DNA from: an uncultured Acidimicrobiia bacterium
Lineage (GTDB): Bacteria; Actinomycetota; Acidimicrobiia; Acidimicrobiales; AC-14
Length of the DNA: 64,000 nucleotides
Reading direction: 5' to 3'
NCBI GenBank assembly: GCA_963836205.1
Contig: CAWIIV010000006.1
Coordinates: 288,001 to 352,000, forward strand
The position numbers and the translations under genes are program-made. Numbering within the stretch: position 1 is the first letter of the stretch; the number at the start of each line of letters is the position of its first letter. The notes beneath the pieces were generated by a model. The model ran no database searches. It was not told where the DNA came from and saw only the letters and a list, made by a program, of their open reading frames with translations. This document shows, piece after piece, positions 13,132 to 64,000 of this stretch.

Positions 13132-15749
13132 GTGGGCCGTTGCACCGATTTCGGCGTGACAATCCAGTCCGGCTGCAACCATGCCATGCGGCGCGAGCAG
13201 TCCTCGTGCGCGTGTCCCGAGTGCAGCGTGGTGTGCCGCGGCAAGTACACCGGCCGCCCCGACGTGTGGGCCGCCGGCACCCGGGCCGAGGCGCCCACCG
13301 TCGTCCGTACGGGCGACCCCCGCGGCGCCGCTCCCGCTTGGAATGCCGAGGCCGACCCGCCGGCCACGGCCACGCCATCTGGCCCCCCCGCCAAAGTGTC
13401 CAATCGCCGGGCCGGCCGTGCCCAGGGTGGCGCGACCGATAGCGAATGGGTGATCGCCCGCTGCCGCCGGAGTCGATGGCGGGAGCAACTCCGCCGGCGC
13501 CACCGTCCCGGCCCACCCCGCGCTCCAAGACGGTGAAGCGCCGGTCCGGCCGCGCCCGCGGTGTCCGCATGGGCCCCGAATGGATGCTCGCCCCGCTGCC
13601 GACGGAGTCGCCGGCGAGCTCCGTCCCCCCAGCCCAGTCCGCTCCGCCCCCCCCACCAGCCCAACCAGCCCAACCAGCCCCACCAGCCCAACCAGCCCAA
13701 CCAGCCCCACCAGCCCCACCAGCCCCACCAGCCCAACCAGCCTCGCCAGCCTCGACCGGCCCGCCAGTCCGGTCAGTCCGGTCGACTCCGCAGGCCCCGC
13801 CGCCGGTGCCGGCTCCACCTGTGCAAACGGCCGTAACCCTGCCGCCGGTTCAGCCGGGCCCGCCGGAGCAGTCGGCACCCACATACGACGAGCGGGCGGC
13901 GGTGGCCCTGGACCGGCTCGAACAGCGGGCGGCGGAGATCGACGAGCGGGCGGCGGCGGTCGCACGAGCACTGGAGGGCGAACGAGCCCGACTGGAGCAG
14001 ATGGCCGTCGACCTGGCGGCCCGGGTACCCGTGACCGACGCGCCGGCCGCGGCGTCGGTGGCGGTGCTGGCCCGGCTCGAACAGCGGGCGGCCGAGATCG
14101 ACGAGCGGGCGACGGCCCACAACCGGGCGTTCGACAACGACCGGGCCTGGCTGGAGCGGCTGGCGGCGGAGTTGCCGGCGAAGGCCCGCCAACTCGACGA
14201 CCGGGCTGAAGCCCATCGCCTCGCGCTCGACCGCGAGCGGGCCTCCTTGGACGGCCTCGCCCGCGAGCTGACCGCTCGTTCCGAGGAGCTCGACGCCCGG
14301 GCGGCAGCCCACATGAAGGCCCTCGAGCGCGACCGCTCGGCTCTGCCCGACGACCTTCGGCGCTCGCTCGGCGCGACCCTGCCCGCCCTGGTGGCGGATG
14401 CCGTCCGGCTCGACGCCGCCCGCCGGGCCGAGCGCCAACCGCCCGCCCGGCCCGACTCCCCGGCCCCCCGCTCCGAGCCCGACCCCGTTGTCGAAGCTCG
14501 CCAGCGTTCGCTGGAGAAGCGCCTCGACGGCCTCACCCGCCGGGCCCAGGAGATAGACGAGCGGGTCACCACCCGCCTCCGGGCCATCGACGACGACCGG
14601 GCCGTCCTGGCCGACGTGGTCCGTCACCAGGACAAGATGGCCCAGGCGATAGCCGACGCCGACCTCGACGGCCGTCATCAACGACTGGTGGAGTGGGTCA
14701 ACGACGCCATCCCCCAGGCGGTGGCGGAGGCGGTCGACGCGGCCATGAAGGTGAAGGCGGCGGCGTTGTCGACGGCCGTCGGGCGGGTCGAGAAGGTTCG
14801 AACCGAGACCAAGACCATGGCCGAGACCATCCAGGAGTCGTCGGAGCGGATGCTGGAGGCCCTCTTCCGCCGCGACCAGGACAGCGCGGCCCAGCTCCAG
14901 GCGCTGGCCGAGGAGCAGGCGGCGATGACGGCGATGCTCGAGGGAGGTCGCGACGAGATCGCCCGGTCGGTGGTCAACAACCTCCCGGCGTTGGTCGAAG
15001 TCGCCGTCCGCACGGCCATGGAGCGTTACGCCACCGAGCGGAGATCGGGCGTCCAGGAGCTGTCCAGCCGGCTGCGGGCCGACTCCGACGTCATGCGGGA
15101 AGCCCTGCAACGGTCGTTCGAGAAGATGATGGAGGCGCTCGCCACCCGCGAGCAGTCCCTCGACGACCGGGCCGCCAGCCACGTCAAGGCCCTTGAACAC
15201 GAGCGGGGGATCGTGTCCAACCTTTGGGACCAGGCGGCCCGCACCGTCACCGCCGCCATGCCGACCCTGGTCGCCGACGCGGTCAAGGCCGCCGACCAAC
15301 TCGACCGGGCCGAGCTGGAGGCGGTCCGGCAGGAGACGAGAGCGGTGCGCGAGCAGACGGAGCGGGTGCGCGAGGAGAGCGAAGCCATCGCCGCCGAGCT
15401 CCGGGAGGCGATCGCCGACCTGAAGGAAGCCCTGGTCGACCGCGACGGAGTGGTCGAACGGCAAGCCGCTGCCTACGAGCGCGCCGTCGATGGCCTCCGA
15501 GTTGCCATGGCCCGGAAACCGGTCGAGCCGAAGGCGAAGCCGGCGGCCGAGCCGGAGCCCGCATTGGTGGCCACGGTCGTCGACGAGCCCGGTGGCGGCC
15601 GGGCCAGGTTCGGCGCCTCGGCGGTGCCCCGGGCCCAACGGGTGGAGCGCCGCATGCTGAAGATCGACGACCGCGACGACGCCGCCTGGCCCGCCCTCGG
15701 CCGCCGGCAAGCGGCGCTGTCCGACCTCCTGGACGCCGACGACGACTGA
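13132..15749 (+). CDS. Cys-rich N-terminal domain + Pro-rich linker + long repetitive coiled-coil protein (paralog A), probable 1-nt deletion at 13457-13459
   Basis: ORFs 13114..13536 and 13446..15749 join if one C is added to the CCC run; the restored RRAGRAQGGATDSEWVIAPLPPES matches the downstream internal repeat RRSGRARGVRMGPEWMLAPLPTES; N-terminus matches paralogs at 63366 and 63613. Confidence 0.75.
13653..13742 (+). repeat. Ten tandem 9-bp units (c[c/a]accagcc) encoding PPA/QPA
   Basis: Counted directly; in-frame coding minisatellite. Confidence 0.92.
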
Positions 15750-15790
15750 GCCGGCGGGGCCGCGCTGCCCCCGGCCGCGAGACCCAAGCG

Positions 15791-16093
15791 TCAGCTCGGC
15801 GGGTTCCCGACGACCGTGCAGGTACCGCCTGCCCACTCGGCCGTCCAAAACCGTTCCGGCTTGCTCGCGTTCTGCATCACGACGTAGTCCCGGCAGGCCA
15901 CTTCGTCGACCGTCAGGGTCTCCCGCAGCGGCCCGGGCACGAAGATGGTCCTGGGTTCCGTCGGCGGCGTCTCGCCTGTCCCTCCGGGATCGTCCCCCCT
16001 GCAGCTCCCGACCAAGAGCCCGACAGCCAGCACAACGACCGCCCGACGTAGCACCTCCCGCCCTCGTGAAGCGATCGCGGCAGGAACGCGCAT
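15791..16093 (-). CDS. Small putative lipoprotein, hypothetical
   Basis: RRAVVVLAVGLLVGSC lipobox-like signal, two further Cys residues; start uncertain. Confidence 0.45.
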   Translation of the reverse strand: MRVPAAIASRGREVLRRAVVVLAVGLLVGSCRGDDPGGTGETPPTEPRTIFVPGPLRETLTVDEVACRDYVVMQNASKPERFWTAEWAGGTCTVVGNPPS

Positions 16094-16125
16094 GACGCCG
16101 GCAAGGGTGTCACGCCGAGGGGCGG

Positions 16126-17142
16126 TCAGCTCGTCGCCCGGCGTCGGGCCCGGCGGGCGGGGCTGCGGAGCCACGGGCTTGCGGCATAGAAGGCCAGGAC
16201 CGCGACAGCGAGGAGGTCGGCGACGACCCGAGCCGCGATCGAACTCCCGAGCGACACGAGGCCGAGGGCTGAGCATAGGGCCATCAAGGCGGCCACGAAC
16301 CCGGTCGTTCGGGCGTGTGACCAGCCCAGGGACGTCAGCCGCTGGTAGGTGTGGGTGCGGTGCGGGAGGTAGAAGCGTGGCCCCACCTCCCGGATCCGCC
16401 GGCACGCGGTGCTCACCGTGTCGACCATGTAGAGGGAGAGCGGCGCCAGGACGGCCTCCGGTGCGATGCCCGCCCTCATGCCGAGCACAGCGAGCACCGC
16501 CATCCAGGCCCCGAGGACGTGACTCCCCACGTCACCCAGGAAGATCCTGGCGCCCGGGAAGTTGTAGGGCAGGAACCCCAGCGCCGCGGCGGCCACGACG
16601 GGGCCGCCGACGAGGAGGGCGGAGACGTGCTCGGCATCCCCGACGATCGCCCATGCCCCGCCGGCCACCACGGCCTGGGCCACCGAGATGCCGTTGATCC
16701 CGTCCATCTGGTTGAACACGTTCACGTAGGCCACCAACCAGATCAGGCAGCCCGCCCCGAAAACGACCCGCCACGCTGGCGGGCCGCCCAGCCCGTCCAA
16801 CAACCACACCAGGGACAGCCCGGCCAACGCGGCGTGGATCGCCGCCCGCAGGATCTGCGGCACCCCGCGCAGGTCGTCGACGAGGCCGACCAGACCGAAG
16901 GCCACGACCGCGAAGACAAGGGCCTTCCGGACGGTGGGGTCGACCGGCGCGGCGACGGCGAGTCCGACCAGCAGCCCGAGGGCGCAGGCGATGCCCCCAC
17001 CGCGCGGCGTGGGTATGACATGGGACGACCGTTCGTTCGGTTTGTCGACCAGCCCGAGAGGTCCGGCGAGCGCTAGCACCGCCGGCACGGTCGCTCCGGT
17101 CACCGCCAACGCGACGAGCGCGGCGATCCCCGTGCTCGCCAT
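16126..17142 (-). CDS. MraY/WecA (WbpL-like) polyprenyl-phosphate sugar-1-phosphate transferase
   Basis: DKPNERSSHVIPTPRGGG, GLVDD, NVFNQMDGING, FLGDVGS, HRTHTYQRL; multiple TM helices. Confidence 0.92.
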   Translation of the reverse strand: MASTGIAALVALAVTGATVPAVLALAGPLGLVDKPNERSSHVIPTPRGGGIACALGLLVGLAVAAPVDPTVRKALVFAVVAFGLVGLVDDLRGVPQILRAAIHAALAGLSLVWLLDGLGGPPAWRVVFGAGCLIWLVAYVNVFNQMDGINGISVAQAVVAGGAWAIVGDAEHVSALLVGGPVVAAAALGFLPYNFPGARIFLGDVGSHVLGAWMAVLAVLGMRAGIAPEAVLAPLSLYMVDTVSTACRRIREVGPRFYLPHRTHTYQRLTSLGWSHARTTGFVAALMALCSALGLVSLGSSIAARVVADLLAVAVLAFYAASPWLRSPARRARRRATS

Positions 17143-17216
17143 AGGAAGGATCGTACGACGCGCACCGCGGGCAAGTGGTTGTCGGAGACCGGGCGGCGCC
17201 GCGAGAGACTGAGCCG

Positions 17217-18176
17217 GTGAGACTCCTCCTCGTAGGCGAAAGCACCCCGTCATCGCCGGTCGAGCCGCTGAGGCAGGGACTCGCGGCCGCCGGGATCGAG
17301 GTCACCTTCGTCGACTCCACCCGGGCCGGCGGCGTCGAGCCGGCCACGACCCTCGGGCGCGTCCGCCTTCGCCGTCGGGGGCGTACGGCCGGCGAACGGC
17401 TCGTCGAGGCCGCAACCCAGCTCGCGCCCGACGCTGTGCTGATCGTCCACGGTCGCGGCATCGGGCCCGAGGCCATCGAGAGCGTGCGGTCGATGTCCTG
17501 CCCGGTGACCATCTACTACCCCGACAACCCCTTCTGGAGAAGTGCCGACTGGGACCCGGCGATGCCTCGGCTGGCTGCGGCCGACGCCGTCGCCGTGACC
17601 ACGGAGCGAATCGCGGGCCTGCTCGACGGGCGGGTGCGCTCGAAACCGGCGGTCGTGCCCCTTGGGTACGACGACCAGCGGTTTCCCTTGACGACGCCGG
17701 GCGCCGACCGCCACGGCCTGGCGTTCGTCGGTTCGTGGTCCCCCCGTCGGGAGCGATTCCTGGCCGCCCTTGATGGCCTGCCGCTGACCGTCGAGGGTTC
17801 GGGCTGGGAGCGCAGCCGTGTCCGACCTTCTCCCCCGGCACCGTCTCGGCGGGCTGCGGTCGGTGTGAACCTCCTCCACCCCCGCGCCGGCGGCAGCCAC
17901 AACGCCCAGACCCGCCAGATCCCGGCGTCGGGCGCGATGCTCCTCACCGATCCGGGAACCGACGGCACCCCCCTGGTCGACGGCGAGAGCTGCGTCTGGT
18001 TCCACTCGCCCGACGAGCTGCGAGCCAAGGCGGAATGGGCGTTGCAGCACGCCGATGAGGCAGTGGCGATCGCATTCCGGGGACAGGCTTTCGTAGCCGC
18101 CGACACGTGGACCCAGCGAGCCCGGGTGCTGGCCGGTCTGATCGGCGCCCTCGAAACCCAGGGAGCCCCCAGTTGA
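17217..18176 (+). CDS. Glycosyltransferase, CgeB-like (GT-B)
   Basis: YYPDNP, FVGSWSPRRE, SHNAQTRQIPASGAMLLT, DGESCVWFHSPDEL. Confidence 0.75.
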   Translation: MRLLLVGESTPSSPVEPLRQGLAAAGIEVTFVDSTRAGGVEPATTLGRVRLRRRGRTAGERLVEAATQLAPDAVLIVHGRGIGPEAIESVRSMSCPVTIYYPDNPFWRSADWDPAMPRLAAADAVAVTTERIAGLLDGRVRSKPAVVPLGYDDQRFPLTTPGADRHGLAFVGSWSPRRERFLAALDGLPLTVEGSGWERSRVRPSPPAPSRRAAVGVNLLHPRAGGSHNAQTRQIPASGAMLLTDPGTDGTPLVDGESCVWFHSPDELRAKAEWALQHADEAVAIAFRGQAFVAADTWTQRARVLAGLIGALETQGAPS

Positions 18177-23370: not shown

Positions 23371-26190
23371 CTACGGCACGTTGGTCACCGTGTCGCCGAC
23401 ATCCGAGCTGGCGGTGTCGGTGCCGTTGCCACCGTCGGCGGAGTCACCCGGGGCTCCGTCGGCCACGTTGAGGGAGTCGTTGCCGTCCCCGCCCTGGACG
23501 TCGTCGACACCGGCGCCACCCACCAGGGTGTCGTTGCCGCCCTTGCCCAGGAGCTGGTCGTTGGATGCGCTGCCGGTGATGGTGTCTCCGGCGGTGCTGC
23601 CCCACACGTTCTCGACGGTGGCGAGGACGTTGTCGTTCTCCCCCGCCGCCCCGTCGCCAATGGCGCTGTCGAGGCTGACGTCGACCGCCGCGGTGCGGGA
23701 GTCGTAGCGGACCAGGTCCACTCCGGCCGAGCCGTCGATGTAATCGGCGCCGTTGCTCACGCCACCTTCCTTGAAGATGTCGTTGCCGTCGTCGCCCCGC
23801 ACCACGTCGTTGCCCAGACCACCGTCGATGATGTCGTTGCCAAAACCGCCGTAGATGCGGTCGTTGCCATCGCCACCGTTGACGGTGTCGTCGCCGTCGA
23901 GGCTGCAGATGGTGTCGTTGCCACCCAGGCCGTCGATGATGTCGTTCGACATGGTGCCGACGATGACGTCGTCGCCGGCCGTGCCCGTGATGGGCCCACC
24001 GCTCCCGAAGATGGTGGCGTCGACGCCGTTGCACTTGCCGAACATCCACTCCAGCACGAACGTGCCGGTGGAGCCGCCGTTGCCATCCACCGCGATGCGG
24101 TAGTTGGTACCACCAACGGCGTTGAAGAACGCCTGGGTCCCTCCCGATCCCACGCTGGTCAGGCCGGTGAGCGATGAGCCGGTGTAGACCTCGATGCCCG
24201 GGAACAACCCGCCACCGATGCCACGCAGCCTAACCGTGGAAGGAGCCGACAGCGTCGGCGTCCACGAGAACCACGACGAGTTATCCGAGTAGGCGCCGCC
24301 ATGGAACTCGGGCGAGCCCGGCTCACCCGTGGACCGGATGGTGGAACCACTGGTGAATCCCTGGAAGCCGGCGGTCACCCTCGGCGTGGCGAAGTCGTCG
24401 TAGCTCGGCCGGTTGACCGACCACTGGAGGGTGATGCTCCCCTGGCCGAGGCTGTACCCATCCACCACGATGCGGTAGGTAGTACCCGCGATGGCGTTGA
24501 ACGTGACCTTCGACTGAAGGCTGAAGGAGTCGTCATTGATCGCGACCTGTGTCAGCGAACCCACCGAGCCGCCGGTGTAGACCCCGAGGACCGTGTCGAA
24601 GGTGGAATCCTTCGTGTTCATGACCGCGGGGCCGCTCTCAGGAGCGATCCACGAGTACCAGACGCTCGAGTTGGGCTCCGTGATGTGGGCCGGCTCCAGG
24701 GGCTCGCCGGTGGCGGCCACATTGCTCCCGAACGCCTTCCCGGTGGGACCGACGAGAGCGGCCGCCGCCGAGAACTCGTCGTTGGCCGGACCGTTGAGAC
24801 CCCACTGCAGGTTGAAGGTGCCGTGGGCGGCGCTGAACCCGCCGACCTGGATGCGATAGGTGGTGCCGCTGACGGCATTGAAGCTGACCCGCGACTGCAG
24901 GGTGATGTAGTCGTCGTTGGTGGCCACCGCTGCCAGTGCGTTCACCGAGGCCCCGGTGTAGACGCCGAGGGTGGTGTCGAAGGTCGAGTTTCGGGTGTTG
25001 AAGATGGTAGGTCCTGATGCCGGTGCCGACCACGAGTACCAGACCGACGTCGACGCCGACAACGAGGCCACGCTGGGCTCGCCGACCTGGGCCGTGGCGT
25101 CGGTGTTGCTGCTGGTCAGGAAGCCCGAAGCCCCGCCGATGGCCGATCCGGCGAAGTTGTTGTTCGAGGGACGGGGCACATTGGAGTCGACGAAGGTGCG
25201 CATGACGCCGCCCCACGACTCGCCGTAGACACCGGGAAAGTTGGGCTGGGCGCAGCCACTGCCCCAGCTGGTGTCGCCCACGAGGGCGGGCTGGAAGCCG
25301 GTGACGAACAGCGGTCCCCCGCTGTCGCCCTGGCAGGTGTCCTGGCCGCCGGCCAGGGGCCCGGCACCGATCATGTTCGCCCCCACGAACGAGCCGCCGT
25401 AGGCACTGGCCATGGAGGCGTCGGACTGGACAGGCAGGTCGACCTGGCGCAGCTCGTTGGCGGCTGCGCCGGAGCCCTGGAAGGTGTCACCGTGGCCGAC
25501 GGCCCGAACGCTCTGGCCGACTCCGAACGGGTCGCCGCCGTCGGCCATGCGGGCCCAGCGGAAGGTCGAGGGCGCATCCAGCTGGATGAGAGCGACGTCG
25601 AAGTTGGGCGCTCCCCCGGCGGTGGTGTACGAGGGGTGCACGAGGATCTGGGCCGCGTTGCGGGTCTCGCCCTGGGAGGTGTCGGTCAGCAGCGTGTTGC
25701 CGATGAGCAGGTCGACCTCGCTGGGAAGCAGGTCGCCGGAGTGGAAGCTGTTGCGGATGCAGTGCCCGGCGGTGAGCACCCATGTCGACGAGATGAGTGT
25801 TCCACCGCAGAAGTGCTTGTTGTAAGGGGTGCCGCCGCCGGCGGCCCACTGCAAGGACACGAAGTAGGGGTACGCGCCCGTTGAGGCGGCGGTGCCGCCG
25901 ACGATGCCGGGGTCGCCGATGGGCGGGGTGCTGGCCATCTGCTTGTCGGCGTCGAGAGGCTTGAGCCCGTCCTCGACCGGTCCCGGAACCTCAGGGGCCG
26001 CGACCTTGGGCGGATCCGAGAGCCGTGCCCGGGCGCCGCTCACGCTCTGGTCCGTCTGACCCGATGCCGGGGCAGCGTCCTGGGCTGATGCGATGCTGGT
26101 GGGCAGCAGCAGCGCGTTGGCAACCCCCAGCGCCAGCAGCGCCTTCCCGATGGAAATGGATGCGCGCGCGCTCCACACGTGCTGTCTCAT
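23371..26190 (-). CDS. Secreted S1 trypsin-like protease + three PPC-like repeats + RTX-type Ca-binding repeats
   Basis: RBS GGAGGAG, signal peptide, IVGG, LTAGHC, DVAL, CQGDSGGP; three PxxDxF...WYSW...TxYRIxVxG units; multiple GGxGND nonapeptides. Confidence 0.92.
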   Translation of the reverse strand: MRQHVWSARASISIGKALLALGVANALLLPTSIASAQDAAPASGQTDQSVSGARARLSDPPKVAAPEVPGPVEDGLKPLDADKQMASTPPIGDPGIVGGTAASTGAYPYFVSLQWAAGGGTPYNKHFCGGTLISSTWVLTAGHCIRNSFHSGDLLPSEVDLLIGNTLLTDTSQGETRNAAQILVHPSYTTAGGAPNFDVALIQLDAPSTFRWARMADGGDPFGVGQSVRAVGHGDTFQGSGAAANELRQVDLPVQSDASMASAYGGSFVGANMIGAGPLAGGQDTCQGDSGGPLFVTGFQPALVGDTSWGSGCAQPNFPGVYGESWGGVMRTFVDSNVPRPSNNNFAGSAIGGASGFLTSSNTDATAQVGEPSVASLSASTSVWYSWSAPASGPTIFNTRNSTFDTTLGVYTGASVNALAAVATNDDYITLQSRVSFNAVSGTTYRIQVGGFSAAHGTFNLQWGLNGPANDEFSAAAALVGPTGKAFGSNVAATGEPLEPAHITEPNSSVWYSWIAPESGPAVMNTKDSTFDTVLGVYTGGSVGSLTQVAINDDSFSLQSKVTFNAIAGTTYRIVVDGYSLGQGSITLQWSVNRPSYDDFATPRVTAGFQGFTSGSTIRSTGEPGSPEFHGGAYSDNSSWFSWTPTLSAPSTVRLRGIGGGLFPGIEVYTGSSLTGLTSVGSGGTQAFFNAVGGTNYRIAVDGNGGSTGTFVLEWMFGKCNGVDATIFGSGGPITGTAGDDVIVGTMSNDIIDGLGGNDTICSLDGDDTVNGGDGNDRIYGGFGNDIIDGGLGNDVVRGDDGNDIFKEGGVSNGADYIDGSAGVDLVRYDSRTAAVDVSLDSAIGDGAAGENDNVLATVENVWGSTAGDTITGSASNDQLLGKGGNDTLVGGAGVDDVQGGDGNDSLNVADGAPGDSADGGNGTDTASSDVGDTVTNVP

Positions 26191-26634
26191 GTATTTCTCC
26201 TCCCATGGGGCGATCAGCCCGGGTCTGCTCGCCCTCCCCAGTGGCTGTCGTCTTACTGATCGGCGAGCGCATCGTAGATACACGAAATTCGCGGCACACG
26301 GGTGCTACCCACCCCATTCAAGTGTCGAGCCCACATGTCCCCCACGGCGCCCGAGAGGGACTGCGGGTTGGAATGCCGCGGTCGGCGGCGTCCTCCACGA
26401 GCTCGACGCGGCCTGGGCGGGCGACGACCTCTCGTGGGGTAGGGCGGGCGTCGGGCCGAAATCGAAGTCCTCGAGCGTCGGGCCGGCCAGGACCGGTCTC
26501 GCGCCACGGACCGACGCCGAAGGTCACGCGGCTGTGTCTCCCACCATCTCGCGGGGAACTGCGGCAGGATCGACGAGGTCGGTCGACGAGAAGGGTTGAC
26601 GAAGTAGCTTGGCGTCGGAACGCTGGGGGCGTAC

Positions 26635-44225: not shown

Positions 44226-44261
44226 AGTGCGGGCGGGCCACGGCCGGCCTACGGTCATCCC

Positions 44262-46305: not shown

Positions 46306-46309
<4 letters not shown>
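45227..46309 (+). CDS. pseC: UDP-4-amino-4,6-dideoxy-N-acetyl-L-altrosamine transaminase (DegT family)
   Basis: IPYGHQSIDDDDI, WLTQGP, EDAAHALG, FSFHPVKHITTGEGG, GFNYRMTDIQAALG, QVHYVP. Confidence 0.94.
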
Positions 46310-47570
<1,261 letters not shown>

Positions 47571-47574
<4 letters not shown>

Positions 47575-49984: not shown

Positions 49985-52900
49985 ATGATGGCCCAGGTAA
50001 TGAAAGCGAGGCGGTGTTTCAGGAATCTGGTCAAGGTTGCAGTCGGCCTCTTGGCCTGCGCTACGATGCTGGCGGTGGCCACGGGCCCGGTCGCGGCTCA
50101 GGGCGCACCGGCTGACCTCAGGGCCAAGCTCGATGACGCCGCCGGGGGCCAGGCCCGCCTCGCCGACCAGGCCGGCACCGGCTTGCTCCGCTTCTTCGGC
50201 ACCACCAAGGACCACGCCGTGGCCCGGGCCCGGGGCGTGGCGGCCGACGCCACCCCCGAAGTCGCCGCCCGCAGCTTCCTCGGCACCTACGGCTCGCTGT
50301 TCGGGGCCCACGACCAAGGGCATCAGCTCCAGGCCACCCGCTCCACCACCTCCGACGAGGGCCGCTCGACGGTGCGCTTCCAGCAGGTCCACAACGGCGT
50401 GGCCGTCTACGGGGGCCAGCTGATGGTGAACCTCGACGCCGACAAGAACGTCCTGTCGGCCAACGGCGAGCTGCTGCCCTCCCTGACGTTGGGGACCACG
50501 CCCGCCATCAGCGCGGGCGAGGCGCAGGCCGCGGCGATCGCGGCCATCGCCAAGCAGCGCGACCTCGACCCCGCCGGGCTGCGGGCGGGGCCCGGCTCGC
50601 AACAGATTCACAACCCGGTGCTGCTGGGCGACGGCGGGCGGCCGGTCGACTCGCTGGCGTGGCTGACCGAGGTCACCAACCCCGGCGGCGACCCCATCCG
50701 GGAACAGGTGCTGGTCAACGCGAAGACCAAGGCCGTCCTGCTGCACTTCGACCAGATCGCGGAGATCAAGGACCGCACCATCTGCGACCGCAATAACGTC
50801 GTCAACCCCGACGAGAGCTGCACCCCTATCACTCGCATCGAAGGCAGTGGTCCCAGCGGCATCCTCGACGTCGACCGGGCCTACGACTACTCCGGCGCCA
50901 CCTACGACTACTACTTCACCAACTTCGGCCGGGACAGCATCGACGACGCCGGCCTGCCCCTGCAGTCGGTCACCCGCTTCTGCCCCGACGCAGGCAGCTG
51001 CCCGTATGGCAACGCCTTCTGGAACGGCGCCAACATGGTGTACGGCGACGGGTTCGCCTCGGCCGACGACGTGGTGGGCCACGAGCTGACCCACGGCGTG
51101 ACCCAGTACGAGTCGGGCCTCTTCTACTACTACCAGTCGGGCGCCATCAACGAGTCGCTGTCGGACGTGTTCGGCGAGCTGGTCGACCTCACCGACGGGC
51201 TTGGCACCGACACCCCCGGGGTGCGGTGGCTCATGGGCGAGGACCTGCCCATCGGCGCTATCCGCAACATGCAGAACCCGCCGGCCTACGGCGACCCGGA
51301 CTCGATGGCCAGCCTCAACTACGTCACCGGCGCCGGCGACAACGGTGGCGTGCACAGCAACAGCGGGGTCAACAACAAGAACCTGTCCCTCATGGTCGAC
51401 GGCGGCACCTTCAACGGCGTCACCGTGGCCCCCCTGGGCACGACCAAGGCAGGGCACATCTACTACGAGGCCCAGACCAACCTGCTCACGTCGGGCAGCG
51501 ACTACCGGGACCTCTACGAGATGCTCCAGCAGGCCTGCTACAACAAGGTCGGCGTCGCCGGCATCACCGCCGCCGACTGCGCCGAGGTCAAGAAGGCGGT
51601 CACGGCCACAAAGATGAACCAGTCCGCCCCCGGGGGCGGAGCGCTGGAGGCCCCCATCTGCGAGAGCGGCGACAACCCCACCGACCTGTTCTTCGACAAC
51701 ATGGAGGGCCCCACCAACAATTGGACCTCCGAGGGTTCGGTCGACGGTGGGTGGGTCTACAACGGCGGCTACGCGACCAGCGGGAACCTCCATCTCTTCG
51801 GACCTGACCCCGCCTCTGCAAGTGACCAGACAGCCACCCGGGCAGCACCTGTCATCCCGCCGGCAGACAAGACCACCTACCTACTGTTCAACCACGCCTA
51901 CGACGCGGAGGCCAATTGGGACGGCGGCAAGGTCGAGTACAGCACCAATGGCGGCGGCAGCTGGATCGATGCCGGGCCGCTGTTCGTCGACAACGGCTAC
52001 AACCTCACCAACTCCAACGGTCCCTTCGCCGGCGAGTCGGTGTTCAGCAGCAGGAGCATGGGCTATGGCTCGAGTCGGATCGACCTGACCTCCCTGGCCG
52101 GCGCCAGCGTCCTCTACCGCTTCCGCTTCGCCTCCGACGCCTCCGTCGGCGGCCTGGGATGGTTCGTCGACGACGTGCGGGTGTACACCTGCGGGCAGCC
52201 GGCGCCGTCCATCTCCATCAACGATGTCAGCGTGGCCGAAGGCAACACCGGCACAACGCCGGCCACCTTCACCATCTCCCGCAGCGGCGACCTGACTGAG
52301 ACCTCCTCCGTGGACTACTCCACGTCATCGGGCACGGCAACGCCCAACGTCGACTTTGGTGGCCTGTGGTTAAACACCAACTTCGCCGCCGGGGAGTCGT
52401 CCAAGACCGTGATCGTCAACGTCAACGGCGACACCCTCGACGAATCCAACGAGACGTTCTCTGTCGTCCTCCTGCTCCCGGTCGGAGGGATCGTGTCCGA
52501 CGACGTGGGCGTCGCCACGATCGTCAACGACGACTCGGCGCCGTCGCTCACGATCAACGACGTGGCCGTGGTCGAAGGCAACGCCGGCATCACCGTGGCC
52601 GGCTTCACCATCACCCGCTCGGGCGACGTCAGCGGGGCATCCTCGGTGAACTACGCCACCGCCGGCATCCAGGCCACGGCCGGGACCGACTTCGTCAACG
52701 TGGGCACCACCACGGTGAACTTCTTGGCGACGGAGACGACCAAGACGGTGAACATCACCGTCAACGGCGACACCACCGTCGAGGCCCACGAGAACTTCCT
52801 GGTGGCGCTGGCCACGCCCGTCAATGCCGTCATCGCCGACAGCCAGGGCATCGGTACCGTCACCGACGACGATGTCGGCACTCCGGCGAGGATCTCGGTC

Positions 52901-54259
52901 AACGACGTGCCTGTCACCGAGGGCAACGCCGGCACCCTCAACGCCACCTTCACCGTGACCCGGACCGGCAGCACCGCCGAGGCGGTGTCGGTGTCGGCGC
53001 TCACCGCCGCCGGCACGGCCACCGCCGGCACCGACTACACCACCACCGGGCCCACGGTGCTCAGCTTGGGCATCGGGGTGACCTCGGCCAACTTCGTGGT
53101 GCCAGTCGTGGGAGACGTCCTCGACGAGCCCAACGAGACGTTCTTCGTCAACCTCACCCTGCCGGTCAAGGCCACCATCATCGACAGCCAGGGGGTGGGC
53201 ACCATCGTCGACAACGACGGGGTCCCCAATCCCGCAGGCCCGGCCACCTTCCTCGCCGTCAACGACGTCACCGCCAGCGAGGGCAACGCCGGGCTCACCA
53301 ACTTCAGCTTCACCGTCACCCGCTCGGGCAACGTGGCCGGGGCTTCGTCGCTGACCTACAAGACCTTCCAGGGCACGGCCAAGCTGGGCACCGACCTGAT
53401 CCTGGTCGACGACGCGGCGGTGAGCTTCGCCGCCACCGAGACCACCAAGACGGCGGTCGTGCAGGTCTACGGTGACCCCAACGCGGAGACCAACGAGACC
53501 TTCGTCATCAGCCTCCGCAACCCGGTGGGGGCGACGATCTCCGACTCGATCGGCACCGGCATTATCACCAATGACGACGCCGGCCTGCCGGGCAGCCTGG
53601 CCGTCAACGACGTCATCGTCGGTGAGTCCAACTCGGGGACCGCCACCGCCACCTTCACCGTGACCCGCTCGGGCAACTCCGCCGAGCCGGTGACGGTGAA
53701 CTTCGCCACCACCAACGGGACCGCCGCAGCCCCCGGCGACTATGTGGCCATCAGCTCCACCAGCTTGATCTTCGCCGAGCTGGAGACGACCAAGACCGTC
53801 AGCGTGGCCGTCAAGGGCGACGGTACCGTCGAGGGCGACGAGACCTTCTTCGTCAACCTCTCCCTGCCGGTGGGTGCCGCCATCGCCGACACCCAGGGCG
53901 TGGGCACCATCAAGAACGACGATCCGCTGCCCAGCCTCAGCGCCAACGACGTCTATGTCACCGAGGGCAACGGAACCCGCAAGACCGTCACCGTGACGGT
54001 GACCCGCGCCGGCGACCTGTCGGGGGCATCGTCGGTGGCCTACACCACCAGTGCCATCACGGCCACGTTCGGGGTCGACTACCTGCCCGCTTCCGCCATC
54101 CTCAACTTCGCGGCCGGCGAAACGGCCAAGACCATCACGGTCACCATCATCGGCGACAGCGAAGCGGAACCCAACGAGACCACGGCCATCGCCCTGAGCT
54201 CACCCGTCGGCTTGACGATCTCCGACAACGGCTTGATCACGATCGTCAACGACGACTGA
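49985..54259 (+). CDS. Secreted M4 (thermolysin-like) metalloprotease with propeptide, beta-sandwich domain and six Calx-beta repeats
   Basis: Signal peptide, FTP-like VRFQQVHNGVAVYG, NAFWNG, HELTH, GAINESLSD, DNGGVHSNSG; six (I/V)ND..V.EG...E.NETF...I.NDD units; start 49985 or 50000. Confidence 0.93.
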   Translation: MMAQVMKARRCFRNLVKVAVGLLACATMLAVATGPVAAQGAPADLRAKLDDAAGGQARLADQAGTGLLRFFGTTKDHAVARARGVAADATPEVAARSFLGTYGSLFGAHDQGHQLQATRSTTSDEGRSTVRFQQVHNGVAVYGGQLMVNLDADKNVLSANGELLPSLTLGTTPAISAGEAQAAAIAAIAKQRDLDPAGLRAGPGSQQIHNPVLLGDGGRPVDSLAWLTEVTNPGGDPIREQVLVNAKTKAVLLHFDQIAEIKDRTICDRNNVVNPDESCTPITRIEGSGPSGILDVDRAYDYSGATYDYYFTNFGRDSIDDAGLPLQSVTRFCPDAGSCPYGNAFWNGANMVYGDGFASADDVVGHELTHGVTQYESGLFYYYQSGAINESLSDVFGELVDLTDGLGTDTPGVRWLMGEDLPIGAIRNMQNPPAYGDPDSMASLNYVTGAGDNGGVHSNSGVNNKNLSLMVDGGTFNGVTVAPLGTTKAGHIYYEAQTNLLTSGSDYRDLYEMLQQACYNKVGVAGITAADCAEVKKAVTATKMNQSAPGGGALEAPICESGDNPTDLFFDNMEGPTNNWTSEGSVDGGWVYNGGYATSGNLHLFGPDPASASDQTATRAAPVIPPADKTTYLLFNHAYDAEANWDGGKVEYSTNGGGSWIDAGPLFVDNGYNLTNSNGPFAGESVFSSRSMGYGSSRIDLTSLAGASVLYRFRFASDASVGGLGWFVDDVRVYTCGQPAPSISINDVSVAEGNTGTTPATFTISRSGDLTETSSVDYSTSSGTATPNVDFGGLWLNTNFAAGESSKTVIVNVNGDTLDESNETFSVVLLLPVGGIVSDDVGVATIVNDDSAPSLTINDVAVVEGNAGITVAGFTITRSGDVSGASSVNYATAGIQATAGTDFVNVGTTTVNFLATETTKTVNITVNGDTTVEAHENFLVALATPVNAVIADSQGIGTVTDDDVGTPARISVNDVPVTEGNAGTLNATFTVTRTGSTAEAVSVSALTAAGTATAGTDYTTTGPTVLSLGIGVTSANFVVPVVGDVLDEPNETFFVNLTLPVKATIIDSQGVGTIVDNDGVPNPAGPATFLAVNDVTASEGNAGLTNFSFTVTRSGNVAGASSLTYKTFQGTAKLGTDLILVDDAAVSFAATETTKTAVVQVYGDPNAETNETFVISLRNPVGATISDSIGTGIITNDDAGLPGSLAVNDVIVGESNSGTATATFTVTRSGNSAEPVTVNFATTNGTAAAPGDYVAISSTSLIFAELETTKTVSVAVKGDGTVEGDETFFVNLSLPVGAAIADTQGVGTIKNDDPLPSLSANDVYVTEGNGTRKTVTVTVTRAGDLSGASSVAYTTSAITATFGVDYLPASAILNFAAGETAKTITVTIIGDSEAEPNETTAIALSSPVGLTISDNGLITIVNDD

Positions 54260-58792: not shown

Positions 58793-60486
58793 TCAACCGT
58801 CGTCAGGGCGAGCTCCCGGGCCCCGCCGATGACCTCTGCTCGACGACGATGCCAGGCCGCCGGCCCCGTTCTTGGCCCCTTTGTTCTTCGCGGCCCCGTT
58901 TCTTGCGGCCTGGTTCTTGGCGGCCCCGTTCCTCTCGAATCTTCCACGGCTCGGTGGCGTCTCTGACTCGTAGCGGTAGCCGTAGCCATACCTAGCGTCC
59001 GCCTCGACACCGTTCAGGACAGCTCCGACCAGGGGGCCGTCGACCTGGCGTACTTTTGCGATGGCGGTGGCGGCGTCCTTGCGGGTGGTCTTGCTGGCGG
59101 AGAAAACCATCAGGGTGGCGTCGACGTGCCGGAACATGACCAGCGCGTCGGTCACGGGGAGCACGGGCGGTGAGTCGATGAGAACGATGTCGGCCTCGCC
59201 GGCGAGGGCCGAGAAGACGTCGCCGGCCCGTTGGGACGAGAGCAGCTCTGAGGGATTCGGTGGCATCGGGCCCGACGCCAGCAGCCGAAGGCGGGGGATC
59301 CCAGGGACGGCTTGGAGCGCAGCCGAGACCGGGCGCTCACCAAGAAGGGTCGAAGTGAACCCGACCGCGTTCGACAATCCGAAGAAATCGTGGATGCGGG
59401 GCCGACGCAGGTCGCAGCACACGATGACCACCCGCTTACCCGCCATCGCCATGGTTACAGCCAGGTTGGCTAGGGTAGTGGTCTTGCCCTCGCTGGCGTT
59501 GGCGCTGGTGACCTGGACCAGGCGCATGGGGTGGTCGATGGCTATGAAGTCGATGGCCGTACGCAGGGCGCGGTACGCCTCTGCCGCCGCCGACTGCGAC
59601 GCCGCCGCCGCCACGACCCTGGTGCTGCCCTTCGCCTTCCAGCCGCTCACCTCGGGGATCTCGCCGATAATTGGAATCGCGCCCGTGACCCGCTCCAGCT
59701 CCTCACGACTCTTGATCGTGTCGTCGAGGTACTCGACCAGGAAGGCAAGGCCGACGCCCAGCAGGGAACCGACGACCACAGCCAACACACCGTTGCGGAG
59801 CGGCGTCGGCTTGATGGGTGAGGCGGGCACGGTTGCAGAGCGGACGAACTCGGCACCGCCGGTGATGAGTGCGCTCGTCACCTGCAGCTGGTCGAGGGTG
59901 TTTTGAAACAGCGACTGCTGCTGGACCAGGGCCTGCCGCTGTGACCTGAGCTGTGTTCGGATCGCCTCCCGAGGCTGTCGATCTGGTCTTGGAGGAGGTC
60001 GATCTTGGATCGGACCTCCTTCTGGGCGGCAAGAGAGTCGTCGACCCCCTGCTGGCGCCGGTTGGCGATGTAGGCATCGACGTAGGCGTTGGCCACGGCA
60101 GCAGCCCGTTCGGGATCGGCACTTTCAGCGATGATCTCGACCACCGCAGTGTTTCCCACCGGCCGAACCGTGACGGAAGGGGCCGAACCCAGCCGGCGAC
60201 GTACCTCGTCGCGGACAGGGTCGCCCTTGACCACCTCGATCTCGGTGGCGACGAACTGTGCGGTCTCGTTGCCCTGCTGGTTGGTGGCGTCGAACGGCGA
60301 GAGGCCTGGGCGGGGTTGGATGCGCATCCTCGCAGCAGCCGCGTACACCGGTGTCTGCAGGAACGAAACGAGCAAAGCCAGACCCAAGACGACCGCCAGG
60401 GTCACGGCGATGACGGCGCGACGGCGCCGCAGGACCTGCAGGTAGTCGCGAAGCTCTAGTTCTTCGTCGGACGGCTCATCGAGCAC
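58793..60486 (-). CDS. wzc: Wzc-like polysaccharide co-polymerase/tyrosine autokinase, frame break near 59970
   Basis: ELRDYLQVLRRR Wzz-like N-terminus; AEAYRALRT, SEGKTT, DLRRP, PPNPSELL, DSPP, YGYGYRY Tyr cluster; the downstream frame reads REAIRTQLRSQRQALVQQQ back to about 59972. Confidence 0.88.
58862..58932 (-). repeat. Imperfect short repeats encoding (R/K)NGAAKN in the Wzc C-terminal tail
   Basis: RNGAAKNQAARNGAAKNKGAKNGAG. Confidence 0.7.
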
Positions 60487-60540: not shown

Positions 60541-62403
60541 TCACCCCTCCAGCCAATCAGTGGTGTCGACCGCCTCGATCGTCGACAAGTAAGCCATGCT
60601 CCCGACAAGGGCGGCCGCGTCGTCCATGGGGTCGAGGGCTTTCGCCTCCACGGGGTCGAGCGGAGGCACGGGGACCTGGGAGATCAGCGGATGGGTTGGG
60701 CGGAGGTCGACTTCGCCCTTGGCCAGCAGGATCTCGTGGAGCTTCTCGCCTGGCCGAAGCCCGGTGAACTCGATCTTCACCTTGCGCGGAGACCGGGCCG
60801 ACACCAGCCGTGCCACCTCGGCGATCGACACCGGCTTGCCCATATCGAGCACCATCGCCTCTCCCGGCCGACCGACGGCCCCGGCCTGGATCACCAACTG
60901 CACCGCCTCCTCGACGGTCATGAAGTAGCGGGTGACGTCCGGATGGGTGACGGTGATCGGCCCGCCCCGCTCCACCTGCGCCTGAAACGTGGTCAGCACC
61001 GAGCCCCGGCTGCCGAGCACGTTCCCGAAGCGCACGCTCAGGTAGGCGGCTCCGGTGATCTCCGAGTAGTGGCTGGTGAGGCGCTCGGTGATGCGCTTCG
61101 AGTACCCCAGGACGCTGCAGGGGTCGGCGGCCTTGTCGGTGGAGATGTTCACGAATCGCCGTACCCCCACCTCGGCCGCCAACTCGAGCAAACTGAGGGT
61201 GGCGAGGATGTTCGTCTTCACCGCCTCCGCCGGGTAGCGCTCGAGCATCACCAGGTGCTTCAGTGCGGCTGCGTGGAACACCACCTCGGGCCGGTGCTCC
61301 TCCAGAACCGCCCGCAGGGCCGGTCGGTCGCGGATGTCGACGAGGACGAGGTCGGGCGAGTCGAGCAGGGCCCGACCCTCGATCGACAACTGCACCGCGT
61401 GCAGGGCCGACTCGTCGCGGTCGACCATCACCAGGTGGGCCGGCGCGAATCGGTAGAGCTGCCGGCACAGCTCGGACCCGATCGAGCCCCCGGCACCCGT
61501 CACCATCACCCGCTTGCCGCTGATGTAGCCGGCGATCGCCTCGATGTCGGTCTTGATCTCGTGCCGACCGAGAAGGTCGGCGGTGGTGACGTCGCGGATG
61601 TCGTCGACCTCGACCCGTCCCTCGAAGAGCTCCCTCACTGGAGGGAGGACCTTCACCGCCAATCCCGCCTGGAGGGCGAGCTCGCTCATCTCGGTTACCA
61701 GGTCGGCAGTCGCACTGGGAACGGCGATGAGCAAGGTGTCGGCGCCGGTGACCGCCGCCACGTCGGCCAGCCGAGAGCGGGTGCCAAGTACGGGCACGCC
61801 CATGATGCGCAACTTGCGCTTCGAGAGGTCGTCGTCGAGCAGTCCGACGGGCAGGAAGCCACTCGTCGGGTCCTTCAGCAGTTGCGGTACGACCTGCGCC
61901 CCGCCTTCGCCCGCCCCGAACACCAGCAGCCGGTGTATGTCGTCCCCACACGGCCGGCGCCGGCGGTCCATGGCCAGCCGCCAGGTGTAACGGATGCCAC
62001 CCATGAGCAGCATCGCCACGAGGCCGGCTACGACAGGGACGGTAAGGGGGACGAGGCGCGGGCTCGTGATGGCGTTGGCCGACGCGACAAGCACGGTCGT
62101 CAGTCCAACTGCCTTGGCCAGAGATGCGACCTCGTCGAAGCTTCCGAAGCGGGACCGGCCGGTGTAGGTGCCGAAGGCGACGCCAGCGAACGCCTGGGAC
62201 GCCACCGCCGCCGGCACGAGGAAGAGGAGGCCGCCGAACTTGCCGCTGGCGTCGACCAGCTCGTAGCGCAGCATGATGGCCGCGACCAGGGCGAAAGCCC
62301 ATGCGGCGGCGTCGAGGAGGCCTTGTATCAGCGCCCGATGGCGACCCAGGCCGACGAAAAGGCGGTTCCCGTCCGGCTCCTCGTCACGACCCCGGGTCGT
62401 CAT
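60541..62403 (-). CDS. Membrane-bound UDP-GlcNAc 4,6-dehydratase (PglF/WbpM/CapD family)
   Basis: Four N-terminal TM helices, FGAGEGG, DLLGR, TGAGGSIGSEL, HAAALKH, STDKA, RFGNVLGSRGSV, GLRPGEKLHE. Confidence 0.94.
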   Translation of the reverse strand: MTTRGRDEEPDGNRLFVGLGRHRALIQGLLDAAAWAFALVAAIMLRYELVDASGKFGGLLFLVPAAVASQAFAGVAFGTYTGRSRFGSFDEVASLAKAVGLTTVLVASANAITSPRLVPLTVPVVAGLVAMLLMGGIRYTWRLAMDRRRRPCGDDIHRLLVFGAGEGGAQVVPQLLKDPTSGFLPVGLLDDDLSKRKLRIMGVPVLGTRSRLADVAAVTGADTLLIAVPSATADLVTEMSELALQAGLAVKVLPPVRELFEGRVEVDDIRDVTTADLLGRHEIKTDIEAIAGYISGKRVMVTGAGGSIGSELCRQLYRFAPAHLVMVDRDESALHAVQLSIEGRALLDSPDLVLVDIRDRPALRAVLEEHRPEVVFHAAALKHLVMLERYPAEAVKTNILATLSLLELAAEVGVRRFVNISTDKAADPCSVLGYSKRITERLTSHYSEITGAAYLSVRFGNVLGSRGSVLTTFQAQVERGGPITVTHPDVTRYFMTVEEAVQLVIQAGAVGRPGEAMVLDMGKPVSIAEVARLVSARSPRKVKIEFTGLRPGEKLHEILLAKGEVDLRPTHPLISQVPVPPLDPVEAKALDPMDDAAALVGSMAYLSTIEAVDTTDWLEG

Positions 62404-62589
62404 GCCATCCCGACCATGGATATCCCTTCACCGCTGCCCCTGGACGTTTTGGGGCGGACGCAGCCTAACCGCGGCGCCCGCCCACGCGTGGATCATCTGT
62501 GAAATCGCCGAGAAGGCGGCTATTCCTATGCGCCCGAGGTCGTCGAGTTCGCCGCCCGCCTCAAGCGGACGCACCGACCTGCATCGCCG

Positions 62590-63366
62590 TCATAGGACCT
62601 CACCTTGATGGATCCCCGTGGCCTCTGGTATGCCGTTCGACCCGGGGGCGAGGGGGTCATCGTTCACACGTCGGCGCTGATCGAGAGAAAGGCCGTCGGG
62701 GGCCGTGGAGGTATCCTGTCGATCGCCCGGGGAGGGGGCAGGCCCGTCGTCGGACCGCTCCCCAGCCGACGCGTTGGTCGACTGCCAAGCCGGGCGCTTA
62801 CCCAGCTGTTCCCAGATCTGGGCGGAGCGGGGCGAGGGCGCGGTCCGGCGCGACTCGAGAAGTCCGACCAGATCGGCCTGCACCTGGCTCACCTTGTCGA
62901 TCCCGGCGCGAATGTCAGGCAAGTCGGCGACAGTGCGGTCAAGCTCGCCAACGGCATCGGCGATCGAACGGAGATCCGAGGCGATCGCGTCGACAGCTGC
63001 TCGAAGCGAAGACAGGGTGTCGTCGCTCTCAGCGCGAGCGCGCTCGGCGCCCTGGAAAATTGTGTACACAGCCTTCAGCTGTCGGCCCAACGTCGCGACA
63101 GAAACCACCACATCCTCGAGTGATGCGGCGGTGTCCGGCTCTACTGTTTCCGCCACCGTTGGGTGCACCACCAGCGCCGATCCGCTTCTGATGCCACGGT
63201 GCGGGGCATGGGTTCGAGGCCCTGCCGCCCAGACCTCCTTGCACCCCGCGTACCGACCGGCACACTCGGTCCCGCAGACGTCGCAGCGACACGACGTACG
63301 GCCGGCCGCCATCGGCTGGCCGCAGGCGTCGTGGATACGCACTCCAAACTCGGCACACCATCCCAC
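62590..63366 (-). CDS. Cys-rich N-terminal domain + coiled-coil protein (paralog B)
   Basis: VGWCAEFGVRIHDACGQPMAAGRTSCRCDVCGTECAGRYAGCKEVWAAGP followed by a heptad-like helical region. Confidence 0.8.
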   Translation of the reverse strand: MGWCAEFGVRIHDACGQPMAAGRTSCRCDVCGTECAGRYAGCKEVWAAGPRTHAPHRGIRSGSALVVHPTVAETVEPDTAASLEDVVVSVATLGRQLKAVYTIFQGAERARAESDDTLSSLRAAVDAIASDLRSIADAVGELDRTVADLPDIRAGIDKVSQVQADLVGLLESRRTAPSPRSAQIWEQLGKRPAWQSTNASAGERSDDGPAPSPGDRQDTSTAPDGLSLDQRRRVNDDPLAPGSNGIPEATGIHQGEVL

Positions 63367-63612
63367 GTCGCGTTACTCCTCGGATATTCCAGTCATTCGG
63401 CCAGCGCGCAACCTGCTCAGGCGGCGAGTATTAGGGGCCGATCCCGCAGATCCGTCATTGTAGACAGCGGGCGGGGGTCACCGACAGGGCGCCGACCCCT
63501 CACTCTGCCGACGAGACCGCGCGACGGCTGGTAGGCGAGCCCACGTCGCGGCCGGGCCCACCCTGTCTGCTTCACTCGGATTTAGAGCACCCGGCCGGTA
63601 GGATCGACGGGA

Positions 63613-64000
63613 ATGGGATGGTGCCGCGACTTCGGCTCGCAGATTGCGGAGGGATGCGACCACCCGATGCAGGCCGACTCCGATTCCTGCCACTGCGAGC
63701 GGTGCGGGGTTGTCTGCACGGGCAGGTTCGAGGCCTGCCCGGCGGTGTGGGCCCAGGGCCCGCAGCCCGTCGTGATCACCTTGACCTCAGCAGACGCCCT
63801 GTTGGACGGTCCCAGGTTCGAGAGCCAGATCACCAACGGTCATCAGACGCTCGAATCGGGGGCCACCAACCCGCCCTCCACGGCCACCCCCGCCGCCCCC
63901 GCGAATGCGCCGCCCGAGACCACGGCTCCCGCCGGCGCTACCGGTGCCGAGGTCTTGCGTTCGTACGAGAGCGCGTTCGATGAGCTCCGCCTGGAAGTCA
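63613..64000 (+). CDS. Cys-rich N-terminal domain protein (paralog C), 3' end outside window
   Basis: Not in the ORF track; hand translation MGWCRDFGSQIAEGCDHPMQADSDSCHCERCGVVCTGRFEACPAVWAQGP...P/A/T linker...EVLRSYESAFDELRLEV, open to the window end. Confidence 0.82.
   Translation, partial: MGWCRDFGSQIAEGCDHPMQADSDSCHCERCGVVCTGRFEACPAVWAQGPQPVVITLTSADALLDGPRFESQITNGHQTLESGATNPPSTATPAAPANAPPETTAPAGATGAEVLRSYESAFDELRLEV

Follow-up and report, generated by a model that had tools for sequence, protein, structure and literature searches.

A 64,000-nucleotide stretch of DNA from an uncultured Acidimicrobiia bacterium (hereafter the window; positions 288001-352000 of contig C6 in G000, the 4.05-Mb assembly of this bacterium, with 25 contigs and 71% G+C) was found to encode members of a protein family defined by a cysteine-rich N-terminal head of 50-55 amino acids (aa). 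The family is real, undescribed, unannotated and lineage-restricted. Its members are probably an accessory part of the surface-polysaccharide machinery, as suggested by their sequences and gene neighbourhoods. The best overall reading, to which we give about an even chance, is that they are cytoplasmic adaptors or scaffolds, possibly regulators, that bind two metal ions, likely zinc, and serve Wzc-type glycan assembly.

Listings of open reading frames (ORFs) and direct reading of the sequence showed that the same ungapped head, with seven Cys and one His (Cys7/His), opens the genes at 13132 (plus strand, GTG start), 63366 (minus strand, GTG start) and 63613 (plus strand, ATG start). When these three heads were used as tblastn queries against the whole assembly, two further genes, D and E, were obtained, giving five paralogs. 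The original prediction had named three genes with a common 50-aa head; the common head was confirmed, whereas the number of copies in the genome was not. The genes are as follows.
13132-13296, plus strand: head of paralog A, 55 aa, with Arg in place of Cys at position 42; match to the head hidden Markov model (HMM) with an E-value of 1.4e-28.
13132-15749, plus strand: paralog A; the head and the start of the linker lie in one frame (to 13536), and the remaining linker sequence, with the tail of helical repeats, in another (13446-15749).
62590-63366, minus strand: paralog B, 258 aa, with its head at 63202-63366; it heads a co-directional run of B, a PglF-like dehydratase gene and a Wzc-like kinase gene.
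63613-64000, plus strand: paralog C, divergent from B and cut by the window end; the full protein (G000:C6:351613-352815) has 400 aa, with the head joined to three long helices by a disordered linker.
C6:388757, plus strand: paralog D, 624 aa, 37 kb past the window.
C14:253536, minus strand: paralog E, frameshifted, with a true length of about 1,090 aa; it occupies approximately 4257-7537 of locus L002 (G000:C14:246000-259000).

The tblastn E-values among the paralog heads ranged from 9e-09 to 4e-23, whereas the best unrelated match in the whole genome had an E-value of 0.002; hence, the similarity of the heads is far beyond chance. Over 55 aa, the heads of A and B were 44% and 45% identical to that of C, respectively. 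The residues G2, C4, F7, G8, I11, C15, M19, C26, C28, C31, C35, G37, V45, W46 and G49 were invariant in all five heads.

Subsequently, a profile of the five heads was searched against 1.84 billion cluster representatives (50% identity clusters), with 510 matching proteins at a threshold of E<=1e-3, of which 274 reached E<=1e-10. The statistics on representatives given here refer to the 150 best of the 510 matches, 149 of which carried the motif. The family consensus of the head was MGWCHEFG-x-QI-x3-C-x-HPM-x-AG-x3-C-x-C-x2-CG-x2-C-x-GRF-x2-C-x2-VWA-x-GP. The ungapped set C4, C15, H17, C26, C28, C31, C35 and C42 was complete in 132 of the 149 motif-bearing representatives, and each position of the block C26-x-C28-x2-C31-x3-C35 was kept in 146 of them. 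These eight positions had been proposed as potential ligands from the window genes, and their conservation throughout the family agrees with that proposal, although single paralogs depart from the set: A has Arg at position 42, leaving six Cys and His17 in its head, and the His17 of A, C and D is replaced by Gln in B and by Ala in E. In 142 of the 149 representatives the head began no later than residue 10, and in 128 of these at residue 1. The representatives were 70-647 aa long (median 270), and the open frames of the genome matches reached 1,237 aa.

The range of the family was examined in four samples of genomes. The order, class and phylum-wide runs scored 16 candidates per genome, so that copy numbers in them are lower bounds, and the tallies for relatives and order include four unpublished genomes (G009, G015, G520 and G696), on which no further result depends.
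Relatives: head matches in 14 of 31 genomes (own genus 7/7, own family 12/18, other families of the order 1/12), with 1-7 matches per genome.
Order: head matches in 37 of 401 genomes.
Class: head matches in 9 of 401 genomes.
Phylum-wide: head match in 1 of 401 genomes, namely the bacterium's own.
In the genomes sampled, the family is confined to the class Acidimicrobiia. Apparent distant matches in a Streptomyces record and an unclassified metagenome-assembled genome were out-of-frame artefacts inside other genes.

We also compared the head with known families. The head-bearing ORFs of A and C matched no Pfam-A family at E<=1 with hmmscan, B returned only coiled-coil noise, and the heads had no NCBIfam match at E<=1. 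No Pfam family occurred in more than three of 145 family members, and those that recurred were coiled-coil models; 5-FTHF cyclo-ligase and HATPase_c_2 were odd matches in one member each. None of the 145 members matched a zinc-finger or zinc-ribbon family (zf-HC2, DZR, Zn_Ribbon_1, DksA/TraR C4, RING, PHD or LIM) at E<=1e-3. Protein Atlas scores were all at noise level (<=0.79), the single Zn_Ribbon_1 row, at 0.76, lying below it. Sequence searches of the PDB gave nothing for the head, and PHROGs gave no match. PADLOC matches to a ZorA tail and to JetC were set aside, since they covered coiled-coil regions only and were read as generic coiled-coil similarity. A search of longer proteins for fusions to known domains was empty, which is weak evidence. 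The members had no name in the databases or were called "hypothetical protein", with the sole exception of a JGI label "transposase-like protein" (P0013).

The AlphaFold2 model of the head, predicted from 145 sequences, consisted of three short hairpins and one short helix with a predicted local distance difference test (pLDDT) score of 62.1. With Foldseek, this model had no match in the PDB at E<=0.001 (best E 1.9); the weak rows were nearly all zinc ribbons, mostly of ribosomal proteins. In the VIA wide structural scan over 48,161 chains, a single one, 2e9h, passed the Z>=2 threshold, with Z 2.1 over 48 residues and a root-mean-square deviation of 3.2. The classical zinc ribbon has two CxxC-type knuckles on beta-hairpins and binds one zinc. 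The head resembles zinc ribbons (TFS/TFIIB-type, eS27/eS31/eL43 and the two-zinc YfgJ) as a small Cys-rich module with predicted short beta-hairpin knuckles and one C-x2-C-G knuckle (C28-x2-C31-G32); however, it has eight putative ligands at positions 4, 15, 17, 26, 28, 31, 35 and 42, a single CxxC pair, a place at the N-terminus of the protein and no significant match. We call the predicted head zinc-ribbon-like and file it in no family. The earlier description of the domain as unassigned thus withstood the Pfam, NCBIfam, PDB sequence and fold searches.

The association with glycan genes was examined outside the bacterium's own family, in 28 loci with 29 head genes that we selected from 17 families (one to six loci per family), using Pfam annotation of the called genes within 4.5 kb. 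Glycan genes were found within this distance in 22 of the 28 loci, representing 14 of the 17 families; one of them (L040), which has poor gene calls, was positive solely through a glycosyltransferase gene 2.9 kb off. When the neighbours within 3.5 kb were clustered by BLAST, the numbers of the 28 loci with each neighbour were as follows, and no further common unknown partner appeared in these loci.
Wzz/bacterial tyrosine kinase (BY-kinase): 12 (9 families).
Short-chain dehydrogenase/reductase (SDR)/PglF-like: 9.
Glycosyltransferase family 4 (GT4)/DUF4012: 8.
HrcA: 4.
Bac_transf: 4.
RodA: 3.

For the base rate, 14 Wzz-domain genes were counted in 19.65 Mb of five head-positive genomes, so that the chance of finding one within 3.5 kb of a random position is approximately 0.6%. 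In the same genomes, seven of the 14 Wzz genes had a head gene within 3.2 kb, and in one of them (G726) three of the four Wzz genes, on three contigs, each had a head gene of its own. The recurrent adjacency to Wzz/BY-kinase and other glycan genes across lineages therefore exceeds the base rate, as is expected of a component of Wzc-type loci. The original prediction had tied the domain to surface-polysaccharide loci, and this tie holds in distant lineages; the outcome that it had named as refuting the link, homologs with no neighbourhood association with glycan loci, did not occur. Two further comparisons of head and kinase were made. In a Mantel test with 14 adjacent pairs, head and kinase distances were correlated with r = 0.32, which was reached in 297 of 5000 permutations and is confounded by species phylogeny. 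A complex prediction with the B head (residues 1-60, alignment A5), the BY-kinase domain of the window Wzc-like protein (residues 55-335, alignment A4) and two zinc ions scored 0.00, which is no evidence either way.

In the bacterium itself, the glycan genes closest to the paralogs in the window are the following.
16126-17253, minus strand: WecA-like GT4 gene, convergent with A, at the boundary of the atp operon and the glycan region.
58793-60486, minus strand: Wzc-like gene with a Wzz/polysaccharide co-polymerase and a BY-kinase domain and a C-terminal YGYGYRY cluster, split into ORFs 59878-60486 and 58793-59881.
60541-62403, minus strand: gene for a PglF-like membrane-anchored sugar 4,6-dehydratase (Polysacc_synt_2 and CoA_binding_3), directly downstream of B.
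The backbone prfA-prmC-sua5-(glyA)-wecA-atp is contiguous in many Actinomycetota. Pfam annotation of window positions 1-17253 and of G000:C6:366001-402000 (L035, L001 and L036) showed that here the prfA-prmC-sua5 part and the wecA-atp operon part are split by about 100 kb rich in glycan genes. The atp operon (minus strand) is followed by A (plus strand), the WecA-like GT4 gene and the island within the window, with genes for glycosyltransferases, a carbamoyltransferase, NeuB-, PseB- and CMP-transferase-like proteins and three giant, probably secreted proteins; then come the Wzc-like gene, the PglF-like gene and B (all on the minus strand) and C (plus strand). Past C lie genes for a priming transferase (Bac_transf), DUF4012 and a second Wzc-like protein, an APS kinase gene, and genes for Rrf2, a second WecA-like GT4, glyA and a low-molecular-weight phosphotyrosine phosphatase. 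The stretch ends with a UDP-glucose dehydrogenase gene, a third Wzc-like gene, a GDSL lipase gene, D (plus strand) and sua5-prmC-prfA. In total it holds three Wzz-domain genes, two WecA-like GT4 genes and one low-molecular-weight phosphotyrosine phosphatase gene.

Four of the five paralogs, A to D, lie inside this stretch. Three of them have close glycan neighbours: A adjoins the WecA-like GT4 gene, B precedes the PglF-like and Wzc-like genes, and a Wzc-like gene is found 3 kb from D. C lacks a glycan gene of its own and is followed by a gene for an FG-GAP protein. Similar positions were occupied in other genomes of the bacterium's own family. In G002, G003, G004 and G016, the D-type gene is flanked by a Wzc-like gene on one side and by the backbone genes of the sua5 side on the other. 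The A-type gene is found beside the atp operon in three of these genomes (G002, G004 and G016), and in G003 it is instead divergent from a Wzz/BY-kinase homolog. The original prediction that three paralogs bracket the whole island did not hold, because there are five copies, the glycan genes continue past the window to D, and the A- and C-type genes are tandem neighbours in G002 and G003. The bracketing is incidental; it appears since the island lies between two paralogs that adjoin elsewhere.

The proteins share a layout in which a disordered linker rich in Pro and Ala joins the N-terminal head to a helical rod, which varies greatly in length and is followed by a disordered tail; the total lengths range from 70 to about 1,200 aa. 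In the AlphaFold2 model of the full C protein (25 orthologs), helices were predicted at 111-186, 191-250 and 261-328 with pLDDT values of 86-94, whereas the linker (48-110) and the tail (329-400) were disordered. Foldseek with full C returned weak rows for the head only, and the best VIA wide row (Z 8.2) reflected generic long helices and coiled coils, below the noise level for helical models. The paralog tails were barely alike, the only match being that between C and D (33% over 130 aa). A-type tails consisted of repeated LPxLVxxAV units, and E-type tails of about eight repeats of an LPADxxGxYRExxR-type unit. A hydrophobic 19-mer was found in three of the 150 representatives, two of them at the C-terminus, and in none of A to E, where no 19-residue Kyte-Doolittle mean exceeded 1.28, in line with the earlier statement that they lack transmembrane helices. 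Since there is no signal peptide and a membrane helix almost never occurs, the proteins are cytoplasmic as predicted from sequence. Rare membrane-anchored variants were also observed: the distant head protein encoded at L043 (G388:C222:3562-4677) carries a transmembrane helix past its linker and an extracytoplasmic region beyond that helix, and P0041 and P0094 have a C-terminal hydrophobic anchor.

These properties suggest how an adaptor for Wzc-type glycan assembly may work. The seven Cys and one His would bind two metal ions, most simply zinc, in two tetrahedral sites within a zinc-ribbon-like knuckle fold, as the conservation of the putative ligands suggests. The head would be the docking module and the rod an oligomerising spacer, and the protein would act as an adaptor or scaffold, possibly as a regulator, on the cytoplasmic face of the assembly machine. 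This machine would comprise the polysaccharide co-polymerase/tyrosine kinase together with DUF4012, a WecA-like GT4 or other priming transferase, and the PglF-like dehydratase, and the paralogs may be matched to different glycan loci. In its boldest form, which we regard as rather doubtful, the proposal describes a new class of metal-headed, cytoskeleton-like rods that dock on Wzc-type machines in single-membrane Acidimicrobiia and set where, or how actively, each glycan is made, with one paralog per locus; such a partner class, if real, is not known for BY-kinases in any bacterium.

Several observations weigh against a role in Wzc-type assembly. Six of the 28 loci had no glycan gene within 4.5 kb: L042 (family f34), L045 and L046 (f69; with rpoD and dnaG), L047 (f19; with PBP2 and RodA genes), L052 (transposases only) and L057 (a 7-kb contig). 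All nine f69 genomes were head-positive, and both f69 loci examined, L045 and L046, lie by rpoD/dnaG. The seven further f69 genomes, which are outside the 28-locus set, are probably like these two, and if so the fraction of loci with glycan genes falls to about 60%. In f19, the head gene directly follows rodA-PBP2 in three of the four loci (L047, L048 and L049). Paralog E lies among genes for DapD, an aminotransferase and DapF. Genomes without the head still hold Wzz genes (two in G043 and three in G029), which indicates an accessory role for the head protein rather than a place in the core of the machinery. With 1-4 Tyr each, the tails are not obvious kinase substrates. Furthermore, related genomes are non-independent samples, and the head model is moderately confident, with all its fold matches insignificant. 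As a separate observation on f19, genes for a polysaccharide deacetylase, a PglF-like protein and a GT1 lie on the other side of the head gene in two of the three loci L047 to L049.

The same head might instead contact the transcription machinery. A zinc-ribbon-like head that binds RNA polymerase, a sigma factor or DNA, on a rod that oligomerises, would make the protein a regulator of nearby envelope loci that does not touch the assembly machine. Consistent with this, a minority of the weak structural rows came from the transcription machinery (TFS4, Pol I/II subunits and pre-initiation complexes), the f69 head gene lies between two sigma-70 genes beside dnaG, and hrcA is a neighbour of the head gene in four loci; moreover, divergent transcription of the head gene and the Wzc-like gene, the usual layout of a local regulator, was seen at least in L059, L061 and L064. 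However, every one of these structural rows is insignificant on both the Foldseek and the VIA scales given above, the heads of A to E are near neutral (3-7 Lys and Arg against 5-7 Asp and Glu), and Pfam detected no helix-turn-helix or other domain for DNA binding in any of the 145 members. A local regulator would also not usually have rods as long as about 1,000-1,200 aa or as many as seven paralogs in one genome, and we consider this explanation unlikely. An Fe-S cluster in the head, which the original prediction had offered as an alternative to zinc and which would make the protein a redox or oxygen sensor on a rod, seems to us quite unlikely. The dense four-Cys block and the cytoplasmic location would suit such a cluster. 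WhiB (Wbl) Fe-S proteins, however, have four Cys with C-x2-C-x5-C spacing, whereas the spacing in the head is C-x-C-x2-C-x3-C; the heads had no WhiB match in Pfam or NCBIfam, no Fe-S family was matched in Pfam, and the spacing is also unlike the ferredoxin and radical-SAM patterns. The short beta-hairpin knuckles of the model are of the zinc-ribbon type, and eight ligands suit two tetrahedral sites, although none of these counterpoints is decisive.

A third possibility is that the proteins are general cytoskeletal elements of envelope growth, like DivIVA, Scy and FilP, and that their nearness to glycan genes reflects a common neighbourhood of envelope genes and not a partnership with Wzc. The long repeat rods of the A and E types would fit this explanation, as would the adjacency to rodA/PBP2 in f19, the position of paralog E amid genes of the diaminopimelate pathway, and a SepF-YGGT-DivIVA cluster 5 kb from the head gene in G258. 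We nevertheless consider it distinctly improbable, given that Wzz/BY-kinase is by far the commonest neighbour among the 28 loci, that each of three Wzz genes on separate contigs of G726 has its own head gene, and that the DivIVA profile (PF05103) matched neither A to D nor any of the 145 members, in which generic coiled-coil matches were sporadic (each in at most 3 of 145). DivIVA/Wag31, Scy and FilP are actinobacterial coiled-coil scaffolds that have no metal-binding head. They and the head family are alike as cytoplasmic long-helix rods encoded near envelope-synthesis genes, and both could be spatial organisers; the head family differs in having no detectable homology to them, in its putative metal-binding head and in adjoining Wzc-type glycan genes, not the dcw cluster.

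If the head proteins do serve Wzc-type machines, they would also differ from the known partners and modulators of BY-kinases, which include the transmembrane activators CapA/TkmA and the contacts CpsD-ParB and PtkA-MinD/SalA. Those proteins are likewise encoded beside, or act on, the P-loop tyrosine kinase of polysaccharide assembly, a relation known for the head family here from gene adjacency, whereas the head proteins are soluble, unrelated in sequence, equipped with a Cys7His head and restricted to Acidimicrobiia. DUF4012 (PF13196) is similarly uncharacterised and recurs in the same loci (8 of 28), but it is a separate family, often fused to a GT4 glycosyltransferase and widespread in other Actinomycetota, where the head family is not. 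DUF4012 is mentioned for Bifidobacterium longum in connection with a capsular/exopolysaccharide locus and with biofilm formation. A search of full-text literature found no description of the head family, as judged from the listings and the openings of abstracts.

Little is known about the cytoplasmic regulation and positioning of BY-kinase/co-polymerase machines, and least of all in single-membrane Actinomycetota. A conserved cytoplasmic partner specific to one lineage, if confirmed, would give a concrete handle on these machines, since the 55-aa head can be expressed and assayed for metal and for binding. Acidimicrobiia are abundant in soil, water and wastewater metagenomes, and a family of 510 clusters at 50% identity merits a domain entry and marks glycan loci in this class. 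Even if its function proves ordinary, the head adds a new putative eight-ligand metal-binding sequence pattern.

Three of the genes described above are interrupted. When A was read across its frameshift with an X, the protein had about 872 aa. The earlier length of about 870 aa is hence correct only for this reading, while those for B and for the window-truncated C stood as given. A single -1 shift in A was confined to 13443-13533 by a frame-3 stop at 13440-13442 and a frame-1 stop at 13534-13536, and the third-position G+C tracked the frame switch. Both pieces of A align to its orthologs in G002, G003 and G004, each of which is one unbroken ORF (685, 732 and 752 aa, respectively). In the window Wzc-like gene, the frame changes near 59960-59970, as seen against six intact homologs that align across the break; in E, it changes near L002:5800-5900, and the sequence beyond the break is still 80% identical to the G002 ortholog. 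As all three are clean single-frame breaks with intact downstream sequence, they are probably assembly indels. A programmed frameshift in A was rejected, since the orthologs are single ORFs and two other genes of the assembly are broken likewise. The E-type genes of G000 and G002 (L068) start with ATC three codons past an in-frame TAG, which suggests that the head is held at the extreme N-terminus even at the price of a rare start codon.

Some minor features of these proteins and of the island were also observed. In the A linker, positions 13600-13720 carry a CCAGCCCAA-type repeat encoding PAQPAQPAPP, in which the third-position G+C is as low as 0.33 when read in the true frame and reaches 1.0 when read in a false one; this can mislead frame plots and gene callers. 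A-type C-termini (window approximately 15600-15749; G002, G003, G004 and P0074) have a conserved RVERRMLK(I/L)DD...W..L.RR.AALS.LLD motif past the disordered tail, and C-type C-termini (alignment A6) end in G-x-RVSLR; both may be short linear docking or membrane-binding motifs. The island includes the following genes.
23371-26283, minus strand: trypsin-like protease with RTX repeats, 970 aa, probably secreted.
26635-32847, plus strand: Kelch/fibronectin-III protein of 2,070 aa, probably secreted.
41984-49561, plus strand: nonulosonic-acid-like (pseudaminic/legionaminic) set of FkbM methyltransferase, NeuB, PseB-like dehydratase, aminotransferase, GFO/IDH/MocA oxidoreductase and CMP-sugar cytidylyltransferase.
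49907-54259, plus strand: M4 (thermolysin-like) peptidase with six Calx-beta domains, 1,450 aa, probably secreted.

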